Assembly: GCA_001192655.1 (NCBI GenBank)
Contig: BBVC01000067.1
Span: forward strand, 1 to 29,814
From: Caedimonas varicaedens
GTDB taxonomy: Bacteria > Pseudomonadota > Alphaproteobacteria > Caedimonadales > Caedimonadaceae
Direction: 5' to 3'
DNA: 29,814 nucleotides
The notes under the pieces were generated by a model, which saw only the letters and a program-made list of their open reading frames with translations, searched no databases and was not told the DNA's origin. This document shows, piece by piece, positions 3,283-17,575 of this stretch. The number at the start of each line of letters is the position of its first letter. Positions within the stretch are counted from its first letter, which is position 1. Made by a program: the position numbers and the translations under genes.

Positions 3283-3657
3283 TCATTTGATTTCCTCTGC
3301 TACACATGTTGTCCCAACAGTATTATTTAAGAATGTTACTCTGTAATTTTTCTCAACACTTAAATGTTGACATTTATCACCTGACGTAAATGCACTGGTA
3401 TCACCTTTAATGGAATAATGAGATTTTCCCTTCAGATCAGAATTATCAACAATAAAAGTGAAATAATATTCAGCAGGAATTTCCTTGACGTAAGTAGCAA
3501 GGTTTTCTCCCATATTATCCCCTTCAGCCTTGATTCTCACTGTCAGGGCTTTTTTATTTTCATTGACTACATCTAATTTGCCTGCAAACGCAGAGGGAAC
3601 CACGAATAATACTGAAACAACACCTAGATAAGTAATAAACTGTGTTTTAATGCGCAT
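3283..3657 (-). CDS. Hypothetical small exported protein (signal peptide)
   Basis: N-terminus MRIKTQFITYLGVVSVLFVVPSAFA-GK looks like a Sec signal peptide. GGAG-type RBS upstream (aaaggagatt). No recognisable family. Confidence 0.5.
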   Translation of the reverse strand: MRIKTQFITYLGVVSVLFVVPSAFAGKLDVVNENKKALTVRIKAEGDNMGENLATYVKEIPAEYYFTFIVDNSDLKGKSHYSIKGDTSAFTSGDKCQHLSVEKNYRVTFLNNTVGTTCVAEEIK

Positions 3658-8893: not shown

Positions 8894-9151
8894 TTAATCA
8901 TAGTGATAACGGGTTGACAAAATAATCAGATCATCATGAGCAATTTTATAGACAAGACGATGTTCTGATGTAATGCGGCGTGACCAATATCCTGAAAGCT
9001 CATAACGCAAAGGCTCAGGTTTTCCTATCCCCTCAAAAGGAGCGCGCATGATTTCTTTTATCATGGCGTTTATTTTTTTAAGGATGCTCTTGTTATAGGC
9101 CTGCCAGTATAAATAGCTCTTCCAAGCCTCATCCGTAAAAATAAGATTCAT
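8894..9151 (-). CDS. yoeB: YoeB/Txe-family type II toxin (mRNA interferase)
   Basis: 85 aa. FTDEAWKSYLYWQ...GIGKPEPLRYELSGYWSRRITSEHRLVYKI...ILSTRYHY is a very typical YoeB sequence. ATGA overlap with the upstream antitoxin. Confidence 0.9.
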   Translation of the reverse strand: MNLIFTDEAWKSYLYWQAYNKSILKKINAMIKEIMRAPFEGIGKPEPLRYELSGYWSRRITSEHRLVYKIAHDDLIILSTRYHYD

Positions 9152-9402
9152 TCTTCTATTAAATCTTTTTGAGAAAGTTTCCCCTGCTTCAAACTTTGAA
9201 GAGAACGCCTTAAATGCTGCGCATTGGCTTTATTTCCCAGAAGATAGGCTGTTTCTGCAAGGGATTCATAGTCCTGAAGGGACAGAAGGATCATATCTTT
9301 GCCGTGGGGTCTTTTGATAATCACAGGCTCATGGTTTCCTATAGAAGTGTCCATCACCTGCCGAAGGTTTTTTCTTAAATCTGTAAAAGTAACAACATTC
9401 AT
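9148..9402 (-). CDS. yefM: YefM/Phd-family type II antitoxin
   Basis: 84 aa. Contains FTDLRKNLRQVMD...EPVIIKRPHGKDMILLSLQDYESLAETAYLL. Located immediately upstream of yoeB. Confidence 0.88.
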   Translation of the reverse strand: MNVVTFTDLRKNLRQVMDTSIGNHEPVIIKRPHGKDMILLSLQDYESLAETAYLLGNKANAQHLRRSLQSLKQGKLSQKDLIEE

Positions 9403-13710: not shown

Positions 13711-13880
13711 TTAATACATTGTTAATATAGTATTTTTATAATACACGTGATTATTTTTTAAAATATATTGAAAAAAGATAAAATCTTTACGTCTTTTTAA
13801 GATAATTCTATTTAAATAGAGAGTAGATGTATTGGATCTGGAGATATTTTTATGTCTCTAAATAAAAAGGGAGAAGAATA

Positions 13881-15773
13881 ATGAGGGAGAGTATTCAACA
13901 TAAATTGGACGTTGTGCGTCCTCCACGAGTTCAGATTACTTATGATGTCGAACTTGCTGGTGCAGTTACCAGTCGTGAATTACCTTATGTTTTGGGAGTC
14001 ATGGCTGATTTATCAGGTATGTCAGCAGTCGCCAAAGCGCCTCTTAAAGAGCGCAAGTTTGCTGATATCGCCAGCGATAATTTCAATGATATTATGAAAT
14101 CAGTCAGTCCACGGGTTCAAATTAACGTTACTAATAAAATAAACGGTGGGAAAACGCCTTTAGGCGTAGATCTGACCTTTGTAGCAATGGATGATTTTGA
14201 ACCTCTTAATGTTGTTCAGCAAGCGCCTGCCCTTAAAGCATTGTTTGATTCTCGAACACGCCTCAACGATCTTTTGGGGAAATTGGATGGTAACGAAAAT
14301 CTTAATCGCGTCCTTGACGGGGTGTTGACAAGTGGCGATAAAAAAACCGACGTTGATGCCGTTATTAAAGATGCTAACCTTGTTCGTGATTCTTCACAAA
14401 CAGATAACGCAAAACTGATTGTCACCGAATTTCTTTCCTTATTGGATAAGAATGAGGTGCAGGCAGCTGATTCAATTGCTGTTGTTTCTCAAAAGATTTC
14501 TCAACTAGACCACGTTATTTCGGATCAGTTGAATGAAATTCTACATCATCCAGATTTCCTGCGTCTTGAAGCAACATGGAGAGGATTATGGTTCTTGTTG
14601 ACGAATACAGATCAGGGAGCAGGACTTAAAATTCGTTTGCTCAATATCTCCAAACAGGAATTGCAATATGATTTGGAAAAAGCCATAGAGTTCGATCAAA
14701 GCCAACTTTTCAAGAAAATTTATGAGGAAGAGTACGGTACATTTGGGGGTGCTCCTTATTCAGTTCTGCTGTCAGATTTGGAATTTGGTCGTTCTCCTGA
14801 AGATATCACACTTTTGACAAAGATTTCTCAAGTAGCTGCTGCGGCTCATGCCCCCTTTATTGCGGCATCTCAGCCCAGCTTGTTTGATTTGAACAGCTTT
14901 GCTGAGCTTGGATACCCTCGTGATTTGTCACGTGTTTTCGAAAGCACTGAGCTTGGAAAATGGAATGCGTTCCGTGAATCGGAAGATTCACGCTATGTGG
15001 CTCTTACCTTGCCTCACGTTTTGATGAGGGCGCCTTATGGGGATAATGGCACTGTTGTCTATGGCATGAATTTCCAGGAAGACGTAGATGGCGTCGATAA
15101 TTCGAAATTCTGTTGGGGAAGCGCCGCCTGGTCACTGGCACAGCGGGTATTGAACTCGGCTGGCCTTTATGGTTGGCCTGCTGCCATTCGTGGCGTTGAG
15201 GGCGGTGGTTTGGTTGAAGATCTTCCTTACTATACCTTCAAGACGACAGACGGAGACATTGCATTAAAATGCCCCACGGAAGTATCCATCACAGATCGTC
15301 GAGAAAAAGAACTGAGTGATCTTGGCTTTATTGCACTTTGTCATTGCAAGAATCGTGATTACGCTGCTTTCTTCAGTGCGCAAACAACGCAAAAATCCAA
15401 GCTTTATAACCTGGATCAGGCAAATGCAAATGCTCAGTTATCAAGTCGGCTGACTTACATTCTGGCTGCCTCTCGCTTTGCCCATTATATAAAAGTGATT
15501 ATGCGCGATAAAATTGGCAGCTTTATGTCACGTACAGAGGTTGAAAGTTTTCTTAATAAATGGATTGCCTCTTATGTGTTGCTGACAGATGAAGCAGATC
15601 AAGTTGCAAAGTCACGCTTTCCTTTGCGGGAAGCACGAATTGAAGTGGTAGATGTTCCTGGACAACCTGGAAATTATCGTGCTGTTGTGTTCCTCAGACC
15701 GCATTTCCAGTTGGAAGCACTAACAGCCTCTTTAAGATTGGTTGCAAATCTGCCAAGACCCGCAGCACGTTAA
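13881..15773 (+). CDS. tssBC: Type VI secretion contractile sheath protein encoded as a single TssB(VipA)-TssC(VipB) fusion polypeptide
   Basis: aa 1-150 are TssB-like: PPRVQITYDVE, RELPYVLGVMADLSG, KERKF..I..DNFNDIM, DLTFVAMDDFEPLNVV, ALKALFDSRTRLNDL. aa ~205-630 are TssC-like: QLNEILHHPDFLRLEATWRGLWFLL, LFKKIYEEEYGTFGGAPYS, AAAAHAPFIAA, LPHVLMRAPYG, RFAHYIKVIMRDKIGSF, PGNYRAVVFLRPHFQLE. GGGAGAAG RBS before the ATG. No stop codon and no in-frame ATG lies between the two parts. Confidence 0.85.
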   Translation: MRESIQHKLDVVRPPRVQITYDVELAGAVTSRELPYVLGVMADLSGMSAVAKAPLKERKFADIASDNFNDIMKSVSPRVQINVTNKINGGKTPLGVDLTFVAMDDFEPLNVVQQAPALKALFDSRTRLNDLLGKLDGNENLNRVLDGVLTSGDKKTDVDAVIKDANLVRDSSQTDNAKLIVTEFLSLLDKNEVQAADSIAVVSQKISQLDHVISDQLNEILHHPDFLRLEATWRGLWFLLTNTDQGAGLKIRLLNISKQELQYDLEKAIEFDQSQLFKKIYEEEYGTFGGAPYSVLLSDLEFGRSPEDITLLTKISQVAAAAHAPFIAASQPSLFDLNSFAELGYPRDLSRVFESTELGKWNAFRESEDSRYVALTLPHVLMRAPYGDNGTVVYGMNFQEDVDGVDNSKFCWGSAAWSLAQRVLNSAGLYGWPAAIRGVEGGGLVEDLPYYTFKTTDGDIALKCPTEVSITDRREKELSDLGFIALCHCKNRDYAAFFSAQTTQKSKLYNLDQANANAQLSSRLTYILAASRFAHYIKVIMRDKIGSFMSRTEVESFLNKWIASYVLLTDEADQVAKSRFPLREARIEVVDVPGQPGNYRAVVFLRPHFQLEALTASLRLVANLPRPAAR

Positions 15774-15802
15774 GGTAAAAAAAGAAATTTTAGGAGGATA
15801 TT

Positions 15803-16402
15803 ATGCCAACAGATGCAGTAGCCGGAATTAATCCCGAACATTCAAGAGCCCTCGAAAACTTTCGAGGGGTTGAAAGGCCTCTTGACCAACGCGTTCCTTC
15901 ATCAATTTATGTTCAAAGCACCGCAACACCACAATACATGGTGAAAATGGACGATCTTGTAAAGTCCAGTGTTCAAAAATTTGAAGGCGCAATTCAGCTG
16001 TATCACTTTGATTTTGAAGTTTCCCGCTTCACTAATCCCAATACGGCTCATCAACAGTATTCATCAGGTCGTGTGCAATTTGACAATCCATTGCTTATTA
16101 TACCCAATGGTATTCACACGCCTAATATCATGAATCGTCTGATTACCGGTATTTTAGTCAAGGAAATTAAAATTTCTCGCCTTCAGAATATTGATGAAAC
16201 GAACGTTGAAGCAGAAGCGATTACTTTCACGAACTGTTACTATCAAAATGTGACGCCCAAGTACGACTCTCTCATTATTACGTTCAGGTTCGTTGAATAT
16301 ATGCACTTAACGACCTACTATGAACAAGATGGAACCGCTAAAGGTAATAATGTGGTTAGCTATAACATGAGTACTGGCGAGCATAAGGTTCAAGGTGGTT
16401 GA
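15803..16402 (+). CDS. hcp: Divergent Hcp-like (TssD) inner-tube protein candidate with a ~43-aa N-terminal extension
   Basis: Position directly after the sheath gene, with a strong AGGAGG RBS. From aa ~44 the pattern resembles Hcp: YMVKMDD....FEGAIQLYHFDFEVS, SGRVQFDNPLLIIPNGIHTPNIMNRLITG, EAEAITFTNCYYQNV, LIITFRFVEYMHLTTYYEQDGTAKG..VSYNM. Compare Hcp1 STPNLM, ITL..V.V, Y.PQ..DG. The similarity is weak. Confidence 0.55.
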   Translation: MPTDAVAGINPEHSRALENFRGVERPLDQRVPSSIYVQSTATPQYMVKMDDLVKSSVQKFEGAIQLYHFDFEVSRFTNPNTAHQQYSSGRVQFDNPLLIIPNGIHTPNIMNRLITGILVKEIKISRLQNIDETNVEAEAITFTNCYYQNVTPKYDSLIITFRFVEYMHLTTYYEQDGTAKGNNVVSYNMSTGEHKVQGG

Positions 16403-16414
16403 TCTTCCTGACTG

Positions 16415-16912
16415 TTGGATTTAGTAATGAAATATACAAGCCAGTCCTTGTCGAAGAATGTTCAAAAAGGGGTGTATGCGCCCCTTTTTGATTGTCTGTC
16501 CAAAGAAGAGATAGAAATTGTTCTCGATTTGAAGGGATTAAAAGAGTCTATCGCCCGCGAGCTTGAAACAATCTTGAATACAAGACCTGTTGCCAGAGAT
16601 TGGAAACTAGGTGACGCTGTTTATGAAATTGCCCAACATCTTCCTCAATACTTTGGCCTACGGGATTTTACTTTCCAACAAGCCGCCAATGAAGTCGGAA
16701 GACGAGCTATTGTTCAAGAAATCATAAAAGTCATTCAAGCCTATGAACCTCGCCTTAAAAACGTACAGGTCAAGCTGAGTCTTTCTCCCACGCATAGTTT
16801 GTCTGCGACGGTTGAGATTTCAGGAGATGTGAAATTTGGCAATGTCATGGAACGCACTATCTTCCCCGTCCGCGTCAAGAATCTCTTCCATCCTCAATCT
16901 CAATCAGCGTAA
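16415..16912 (+). CDS. tssE: T6SS baseplate protein TssE (gp25-like)
   Basis: SIARELETILNTRPV, QYFGLRDFT, and IIKVIQAYEPRLKNVQVKLS...TVEISGDV fit the TssE/GPW_gp25 pattern. The start is either the TTG at 16415 or the ATG at 16427. Confidence 0.78.
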   Translation: MDLVMKYTSQSLSKNVQKGVYAPLFDCLSKEEIEIVLDLKGLKESIARELETILNTRPVARDWKLGDAVYEIAQHLPQYFGLRDFTFQQAANEVGRRAIVQEIIKVIQAYEPRLKNVQVKLSLSPTHSLSATVEISGDVKFGNVMERTIFPVRVKNLFHPQSQSA

Positions 16913-16917
16913 AAGAC

Positions 16918-17211
16918 TTATGGATGGGGAGTAATTGCAATGATCGTGATTTCTTTTTTCCCCGGACCATAATGCCAGAACACTCTATAAGCTTGAGGTG
17001 TTTTATTCTCGGCATAAGCTTCAAATATTTCTATGCCAAATTCCCGCGTTAAAGATTCATATTTATGAGTATTCAAACTTGGGTGCCTTGGATTTTTTTC
17101 GAGATACCCCAGCGCTTTCCTAACAGCTTTAAGGCGTTTGCAAAAGTTCCTATTTTCCTCTAGTTCCATAAGATTAGAAGAGGCTATATCAGTAAATTTC
17201 AGCTTATACAC
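16918..17211 (-). CDS. RelE/ParE-superfamily type II toxin
   Basis: 97 aa. The C-terminal pattern AYRVFWHYGPGKKEITIIAITPHP is typical of RelE/ParE-like toxins. Located directly downstream of a small AbrB-type antitoxin gene. Confidence 0.6.
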   Translation of the reverse strand: MYKLKFTDIASSNLMELEENRNFCKRLKAVRKALGYLEKNPRHPSLNTHKYESLTREFGIEIFEAYAENKTPQAYRVFWHYGPGKKEITIIAITPHP

Positions 17212-17229
17212 GAATCAGGCTTTTAATTT

Positions 17230-17496
17230 TTATTCATCAATATATTTTGAAAAACTTCCAAGATCCTTTATATTTTTCTGAGAAGATTGCATCAAGCCTA
17301 TTTTTACCCTTCTCAAAGCTTCTCTATTCTTAAAAAGCCAATCTTCTTGCAAGGGTATTTCTATATAAGGTTCAAGGATAATTTTATTGCTATTTTTATC
17401 GTATACCATTTTAAATCCACTTATACCTTGAGTTAATTTACCAAGGTTAATTCTGCCTTTTGAATCAGGGCGAAGAACTTTTTCTTGCATGGTCAT
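17230..17496 (-). CDS. AbrB/SpoVT/MazE-fold type II antitoxin
   Basis: The N-terminus VLRPDSKGRINLGKL resembles a swapped-hairpin AbrB motif. I prefer the ATG at 17496 (GAGGAGAG 5 nt upstream) over the ORF-track ATG at 17511. Confidence 0.55.
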   Translation of the reverse strand: MTMQEKVLRPDSKGRINLGKLTQGISGFKMVYDKNSNKIILEPYIEIPLQEDWLFKNREALRRVKIGLMQSSQKNIKDLGSFSKYIDE

Positions 17497-17542
17497 AATT
17501 TCTCTCCTCATATATATATCTTAACATATGTGGGTAATAATC

Positions 17543-17575
17543 AAAATGGGAACTTTGATAGTTCCCATTTTTTTT
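17543..17575. terminator. Rho-independent, probably bidirectional terminator
   Basis: Stem AAAATGGGAAC / GTTCCCATTTT (core ATGGGAAC/GTTCCCAT), 7-nt loop TTTGATA. A T-run follows on the + strand. TTTTGATTATT follows on the - strand. It lies 43 nt downstream of the DUF1467 stop. Confidence 0.7.

Follow-up and report, generated by a model that had tools for sequence, protein, structure and literature searches.

An isolated tssBC-hcp-tssE module as a probable block of a dispersed type VI secretion system in a likely Holosporales-type alphaproteobacterium

The closest described counterpart of the locus considered here is a type VI secretion system (T6SS), that of Candidatus (Ca.) Bodocaedibacter vickermanii (1.39 Mb, 40.6% GC), whose genome paper (PMC8163844, published in 2021) covers the Bodocaedibacteraceae, Paracaedibacteraceae, and Caedimonadaceae. 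T6SS core genes are reported there at a minimum of four loci, in an arrangement conserved in three Holosporales families; the supplement gives dispersed locus tags for them, with RNA-seq reads for all except a PAAR-like gene. The Ca. B. vickermanii list has a single tssB, a single tssC, and a single hcp-like gene, with tssF-tssG, vgrG, and the PAAR-like gene at further loci (CPBP_00125-126, 00353/355, and 01201). According to a 2025 review, the T6SS is conserved across nearly the whole of the Holosporales but is “probably non-standard”: its tube and its outer-membrane lipoprotein are apparently absent, and Holospora no longer has a T6SS at all. Other papers describe the Holosporales system as reduced yet potentially functional. 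The DNA analyzed here, a 29.8-kb stretch (contig BBVC01000067.1; “the window” means this stretch at its full length), has three T6SS genes at 13881-16912. They are most probably the sheath-tube-TssE operon of a dispersed T6SS, in a layout typical of reduced genomes in host-associated Alphaproteobacteria of the Holosporales type:

13881..15773, + strand: tssBC, single-chain contractile sheath, 630 aa (NCBIfam, Pfam, and PDB matches)
15803..16402, + strand: Hcp-like tube candidate, 199 aa, with a core at about aa 46-199 after an N-terminal extension of about 45 aa
16415..16912, + strand: tssE, gp25-like baseplate wedge subunit, 165 aa (NCBIfam and Pfam matches)

All three are intact open reading frames (ORFs) by a check of the sequence at these positions, and are tightly packed. 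An earlier sequence-only reading of the window had named them as a fused tssBC, hcp, and tssE, separated by 29 and 12 nt. The identities are borne out by Pfam and NCBIfam matches, and the coordinates give the same spacing: 29 nt between tssBC and the hcp-like gene, then 12 nt to tssE from the TTG at 16415 (or 24 nt, should the ATG at 16427 be the true start of tssE). That reading had also seen no other T6SS gene in the window, and a Pfam scan of all other ORFs of at least 90 aa agrees: no TssJ, TssK, TssL, TssM, TssA, TssF, TssG, VgrG, PAAR, or ClpV was found within the 29.8 kb. Nor did Pfam and NCBIfam find any phage-type sheath or tube family or other tail gene in the window, and the module does not classify as Afp/PVC or T6SSiv. 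“Stripped-down,” as the module had been called, suits the contents of the window, but not the system, other blocks of which lie elsewhere in relatives.

The locus has much in common with the dispersed system of Ca. B. vickermanii. In both, the sheath and Hcp-like genes stand isolated amid housekeeping genes, the setting is low-GC, apparently alphaproteobacterial, and rich in toxin-antitoxin (TA) genes, and the Hcp is divergent and weakly recognizable; in dispersed Holosporales systems the other core genes occupy blocks of their own (tssK-L-M-A with a tssJ-like gene, tssF-G, and vgrG). There are differences as well. The fused tssB and tssC of the window correspond in Ca. B. vickermanii to two genes, annotated at 513 and 1455 nt; tssE, joined to the block here, has a separate locus there (CPBP_00258); and the Hcp-like protein has 199 aa here, with a longer N-terminus, vs. 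174 aa there. These departures from the published case (a fused sheath, an attached tssE, and an N-terminally extended Hcp that evolves fast) are minor. The sequence-only reading had implied that the layout was novel, which does not hold: the split arrangement is not new, because it has already been published for Holosporales (PMC8163844).

A split system is favored because in close relatives the sheath and hcp-like genes are found by themselves, mostly with tssE; because one of them, JACESU01, has a tssJ-like-K-L-M-A block on a different contig; and because a dispersed layout, with transcription, has been reported (PMC8163844). The source genome would then be expected to carry the remaining T6SS blocks too.

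Nine genomic contexts were retrieved by exact-protein look-up. In these, tssBC is followed by an hcp-like gene, and usually then by tssE, amid housekeeping genes that vary by lineage (L numbers denote loci):

Module beside ccmAB: the window, L001, L005
Module beside rpsB-tsf: L004, L091
Module beside lysR-grx/uvrB: L094
Module beside priA/dnaN: L010

The recurrence of the isolated module beside different neighbors implies that it has stayed together despite many rearrangements. A metagenome scan for sheath loci gave at least 80, a sample and not a census. Among the listed loci with a sheath identity of at least 63% and usable flanks, all eight (L004, L005, L008, L010, L091, L094, L131, and L133) are without nearby tssF, clpV, tssK, tssL, tssM, or tssA, and six of the eight keep the full three-gene module; among more distant listed loci, 4 of 32 are without those T6SS genes, the remainder being ordinary clusters. 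Sheath identity of 63-71% is maintained across genomes whose GC at the locus ranges from 0.38 to 0.54, a pattern not easily squared with decay. Of the named sheath homologues, the nearest come from metagenome-assembled genomes (MAGs) labeled “Holosporales bacterium” (71% identity) and “Alphaproteobacteria bacterium.”

JACESU01 (GCA_013911655.1), with a sheath identity of ~69%, has tssBC-hcp-tssE on contig 1 (976 kb). On its contig 2 (409 kb) are genes for a lipobox lipoprotein (tssJ-like), tssK (PF05936), tssL (DotU), tssM, and tssA (ImpA_N); this block, too, has housekeeping genes as neighbors, with asd/SPOR on one side and hydrolase-mrp-hflK, then at some distance a DegP-type protease, on the other. 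Other blocks of this kind were reached through TssM. A 1040-aa fragment of a Pseudomonas aeruginosa TssM was used in a representative search, from which AT-rich matches were picked, leading to the TssM of Caedimonas varicaedens; an alignment of such TssMs, scanned over species-representative genomes, gave 80 TssM loci. Thirty-five of these (at least 5 kb on each side; median GC 0.42) are detached blocks from low-GC alphaproteobacterial or Holosporales genomes, including the complete genome of Ca. Caedibacter acanthamoebae. TssM and TssL are present in all 35, TssK in 33, TssA in 27, and a TssJ-like protein in 24; tssB/C, tssE, tssF, and clpV were found within 10 kb at none of them. The lipoprotein gene that precedes tssK, judged by its lipobox and position, is likely tssJ. 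An example is:

L018 7073-7732: lipobox (LLLTGC) protein of 219 aa, preceding tssK in a detached block

Seventeen of the 80 TssM loci, with GC of 0.55-0.74, have sheath or tssE/tssF/clpV genes adjoining the membrane block. They belong to free-living Acidobacteria, Gemmatimonadota, Desulfobacterota, Insolitispirillum, and Stellaceae, and by match positions their order is tssJ-K-L-M-A, then tssB(C)-hcp-tssE-tssF, with clpV detected in eight, and at some loci situated beyond these genes; this is consistent with one contiguous cluster in each. At the other 28 loci the flanks were too short for judgment. Sheaths from contiguous clusters (Insolitispirillum peregrinum, L083; a Stellaceae MAG, L089; Acidobacteria and Gemmatimonadota MAGs; and P. 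aeruginosa PA99, L007) are 53-63% identical to that of the window, and the clusters preserve its tssB(C)-hcp-tssE sub-order within a larger whole. Unlike the window they are in one piece, and clpV is present in L007 as well as in the eight just mentioned. Their Hcp is canonical (in L007, 165 aa with a clear PF05638 match), in contrast to the divergent Hcp-like protein of the window.

L007 itself (P. aeruginosa CP042967, 6341037-6363088) is a complete cluster for a T6SS; its sheath is fused, and it includes a sigma-54 activator. It is probably not the published H4-T6SS, since the H4 papers describe separate tssB4 and tssC4, and may be a different, rare T6SS cluster. TssM homologues about 50% identical to that of L007 are widespread in fluorescent Pseudomonas; when the TssM of the full P. 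aeruginosa cluster was compared with clustered proteins, the matches listed (at least 120) were all from Pseudomonas or unnamed, at 48-52% identity.

The sheath is the most securely assigned of the three proteins. Its TssB part (aa 6-161) matches TIGR03358 at 160 bits (cut-off 97) and Pfam VipA (PF05591); its TssC part (aa 156-625) matches TIGR03355 at 644 bits (cut-off 271.5), as well as Pfam VipB and VipB_2 (PF05943 and PF18945). Among solved structures, aa 1-153 resemble the TssB chain 9n4v_B, and aa 158-629 the TssC chain 9n4v_A (658 bits). On these matches the 630-aa protein is a seamless head-to-tail TssB-TssC fusion, without a linker. It is also, by its scores, a typical T6SSi TssB/TssC: the best T6SSi sheath gives the 658 bits just cited, vs. 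241 bits for Francisella IglB. No paper on 9n4v was found. Among the homologue clusters listed (at least 120, of 542-740 aa, several of them labeled as Holosporales or Alphaproteobacteria MAGs), all three sheath Pfam domains share one protein, which rules out an assembly error as the source of the fusion.

The fusion is in fact widespread: besides the detached Holosporales-type modules, Insolitispirillum, a Stellaceae MAG, and P. aeruginosa PA99 have it in contiguous clusters (fused tssBC lies inside contiguous clusters at L007, L075, L083, and L089). The two genes are separate in 14 of the 17 contiguous clusters from the TssM genome scan; sister clusters with separate genes occur in Acidobacteria, Gemmatimonadota, and Desulfobacterota (L050, L069-L071, L077-L082, and others). 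The fusion predates the dispersal of the T6SS genes. A literature search found no paper on a natural TssB-TssC fusion. One fused-sheath cluster, that of P0035, holds an entry from EukProt (member P0424), assigned to Dinobryon pediforme, a chrysophyte. This points to symbiont sequence among eukaryotic data, and to a group of possible hosts.

The Hcp-like protein is a more difficult case. It passes the cut-off for Pfam T6SS_HCP (PF05638) narrowly (25.5 vs. 23.5 bits) and has no NCBIfam match. A profile built from four Holosporales-type orthologues matches two Hcp proteins in the PDB, 3v4h (E = 0.007) and 9qpe (E = 0.03). An indexed homologue search collected five sequences, and the AlphaFold2 (AF2) model of the protein, from a shallow alignment, is weak (pLDDT 54). 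Nearly all significant Foldseek matches of this model in the PDB are to Hcp or to Hcp1-containing constructs (best E = 1.6e-7, with TM scores of 0.3-0.4), an outcome taken as supportive only, given the poor model. Position is also informative: every relative has a gene for 193-207 aa in the slot after tssBC, and it is there that the P. aeruginosa cluster has its canonical hcp. Examples from relatives are:

L001 11924-12508: Hcp-like orthologue, after tssBC
L004 11933-12553: Hcp-like orthologue, after tssBC
L005 11933-12523: Hcp-like orthologue, after tssBC

Across four Holosporales-type loci the Hcp-like orthologues are 24-36% identical, vs. 65-71% for the sheath; the former evolves much faster. 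The N-terminal 45-50 residues, with the motif LDQ..PSS.Y.Q.TATP, are conserved in the five collected homologues (close relatives), and a strong ribosome-binding site (RBS), AGGAGG, serves the ATG start codon of the gene at 15803; the extension therefore looks real. The gene at 15803-16402 can be proposed as the T6SS tube candidate with moderate confidence.

TssE matches TIGR03357 at 75 bits (cut-off 53.2) and Pfam GPW_gp25 (PF04965) at 50.7 bits; a sequence comparison with solved structures gave no match. Its gene follows the hcp-like gene in L001, L004, L005, L008, L091, and L094. At three of these loci an orphan ORF of 435-484 aa comes after tssE:

L004 13390-14712: orphan ORF
L005 13383-14690: orphan ORF
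L008 13207-14661: orphan ORF

These have no similarity to TssK or to one another, and no Pfam match, which rules them out as TssK or as a shared conserved partner. They are candidate lineage-specific effectors or accessory proteins; in the window this slot holds small TA-like ORFs.

Around the module are xseA, a gene for an ALAS-type aminotransferase, ccmA, and ccmB on the left, and DUF1467, rnj, coaX, birA, and nuoN-L-K-J on the right. The module had been described as bracketed by housekeeping genes, which is correct for ccmAB and for the DUF1467-rnj-coaX-birA-nuoN block, but overlooked a TA-like pair on the right (16918-17511). Other features of the window are:

12-1064 and 3283-3657, - strand: ORFs of 350 and 124 aa without a significant family match
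8894-9151 and 9148-9402, - strand: YoeB/YefM-type TA pair between tatD and xseA (Pfam labels from the precomputed contig annotation)
13711..13880, + strand: AT-rich intergenic region upstream of tssBC, likely the operon promoter region (sequence read and consensus scan)
13735-13764 and 13757-13784, + strand: promoter-like sites (consensus scan)
16462-16491, + strand: strong hairpin with a 13-bp stem and a T-rich tail, within the first 80 nt of tssE
16918-17211 and 17230-17511, - strand: TA-like pair of 97 and 93 aa, between the tssE stop codon and DUF1467 (by eye)
17543-17571, + strand: terminator-like hairpin and T run, ~630 nt downstream of tssE, past the small antisense ORF pair

The region 13711..13880 likely carries the operon promoter, although promoter and terminator scans gave sites no more numerous than in shuffled sequence. 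The RBS GGGAGAAG precedes the tssBC ATG, and tssBC and the hcp-like gene both have good RBSs at their starts. The hairpin within tssE could reduce its expression relative to that of the sheath and tube genes, or could be there by chance, since terminator-like sites are no commoner than in shuffles. With the next terminator-like site at 17543-17571, the operon transcript might cross the small - strand ORF pair in antisense. By eye, this pair has a type II TA look (a RelE/ParE-like C-terminus and an AbrB/SpoVT-like partner); neither ORF matches Pfam or NCBIfam. The two TA or TA-like pairs of the window fit the TA richness reported for Bodo symbionts. The 350-aa ORF at 12-1064 has weak matches to coiled-coil families and nothing else. 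Overall the window has a GC content of about 40% and several TA pairs, no rRNA or tRNA genes, and nuo/ccm/rnj surroundings of alphaproteobacterial type.

The birA-coaX-rnj-DUF1467 order, which flanks tssE in the window, was met at one other locus only, L025 (17259-20640), where a tssL-M-A block lies 2 kb from it. At L075 (5031-6570) and L089 (4774-6300) a tatD gene and a metallo-beta-lactamase-fold gene are directly upstream of a contiguous T6SS cluster; the same pair is found 5 kb to the left of tssBC in the window. Shared neighbors of this kind could be left over from an ancestral position, or be coincidental; their number is about what chance would give over ~170 loci, and no conclusion on a common insertion site was drawn from them. 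The low-identity “ccmA” matches at those loci are probably other ABC ATPases.

If the three genes do belong to a dispersed system, it would work as any T6SS does, though assembled from the products of several operons. TssE would join TssF, TssG, TssK, and VgrG in a baseplate docked on TssJ, TssL, and TssM; the Hcp-like protein would polymerize into the tube; and the single-chain TssBC sheath would assemble round the tube and, on contracting, drive out tube, spike, and effectors. To judge by how the relatives live, the most likely target would be a eukaryotic host cell, or the compartment enclosing the bacterium. Other intracellular bacteria of eukaryotes have kept contractile injection systems, including the T6SSii of Francisella and the T6SSiv of Amoebophilus, which are thought or have been shown to act on host membranes; the likeness to these is in lifestyle and probable role, not in family membership. 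Francisella has no dedicated ClpV and uses ClpB instead. Here too, where no clpV is visible, recycling of the sheath by ClpB would be conceivable, as a guess.

The clade might go further than this, and run a distinct host-directed T6SS with a single-chain sheath, no dedicated ClpV, and a fast-evolving Hcp whose ~45-aa extension is functional. The extension could then be, e.g., cargo, a plug, or an effector-like module carried by the tube, and the sheath-tube-TssE operon would be kept together because its three parts co-evolve. Such a specialized system is unlikely.

Other explanations for an isolated module have to be weighed against the split system. The sequence-only reading had set a split system, a decaying remnant, and a minimal sheath-tube unit side by side, unranked; the first is supported by the relatives, JACESU01, and PMC8163844, and there is evidence against the other two. 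A remnant, in which the other T6SS genes are gone and these three are heading toward pseudogenes, would fit a window with no other T6SS gene, a fast-evolving Hcp-like gene, and a TA-like ORF pair inserted straight after tssE, and it would not be out of place among relatives with reduced, host-associated genomes, Holospora having lost its T6SS according to the 2025 review. None of the three ORFs, however, is truncated, and their start contexts are proper; sheath identity is 63-71% among genomes with very different GC and neighbors, in which the sheath gene stays paired with the hcp-like gene, mostly with tssE as well; close homologues of the Hcp-like protein retain even its N-terminal extension; and module-bearing relatives also have the membrane/baseplate block. 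Decay is improbable on this evidence. The module might instead be a minimal autonomous unit, with the sheath, tube, and TssE working with non-canonical partners and without TssF, TssG, TssK, TssJ, TssL, or TssM, possibly as a contractile structure inside the cell or an injection particle outside it. Linkage is confined to these three genes, the Holosporales system has been called “non-standard” in the review, and the orphan ORF after tssE in several relatives could be a lineage-specific partner. Against this, those ORFs are mutually non-homologous, hence no conserved partner, and the module matches T6SS equivalog and VipA/VipB families, not those of phage or extracellular contractile injection systems (eCIS). 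Canonical tssK, tssL, tssM, and tssA are found in a relative with the same module. Moreover, from what is established on T4 and T6SS baseplates, a contractile system with gp25 as its sole baseplate part is not known. A self-sufficient unit is very improbable.

It would be equally far-fetched for the module to be a redundant copy, i.e., the spare or leftover of a second system in a genome with a complete canonical T6SS, including its own tssB, tssC, and hcp, elsewhere. Several T6SS clusters in one bacterium are common, but none of the 35 detached low-GC TssM loci has the accompanying genes of such a cluster (tssB/C, tssE, tssF, or clpV) within 10 kb, the Ca. B. vickermanii list has each of tssB, tssC, and the hcp-like gene once (PMC8163844), and genomes of this kind, at ~1-1.7 Mb, are unlikely to hold two systems.

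Some observations also weigh against a split system. The Hcp assignment is weak, given the borderline Pfam score, the low-confidence model, and the 24-36% identity of its orthologues. JACESU01 is a MAG, in which linkage of the two contigs depends on binning, although both are large and of similar GC. At no Holosporales-type locus retrieved were tssF, tssG, or vgrG found, their separate loci being those given in one paper, PMC8163844; low-GC relatives showed no clpV out to 10 kb from either block, nor is it in the T6SS list for Ca. B. vickermanii in the same paper. The RNA-seq support likewise concerns Ca. B. vickermanii. The proposed presence of tssF, tssG, tssK, tssL, tssM, tssA, and vgrG in the source genome extrapolates from relatives with sheath identities of at most 71%, closer ones (74-99%) being known as protein clusters on mostly short contigs.

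With the split system as the preferred explanation, a window that resembles a “minimal” or broken T6SS would be one block of a scattered one. Where the genes are scattered in this way, completeness judged from a single window or contig misleads. This matters because the T6SS is the main candidate for the means by which Holosporales-type symbionts act on their protist hosts, so that correct gene inventories are needed. Two parts that the 2025 review calls apparently missing have candidates: the divergent gene after the sheath is the best candidate for the tube, and the lipoprotein gene before tssK is a likely TssJ. The loci also suggest an evolutionary series, from contiguous clusters with separate tssB and tssC, through contiguous clusters with a fused tssBC, to the dispersed blocks of reduced genomes.

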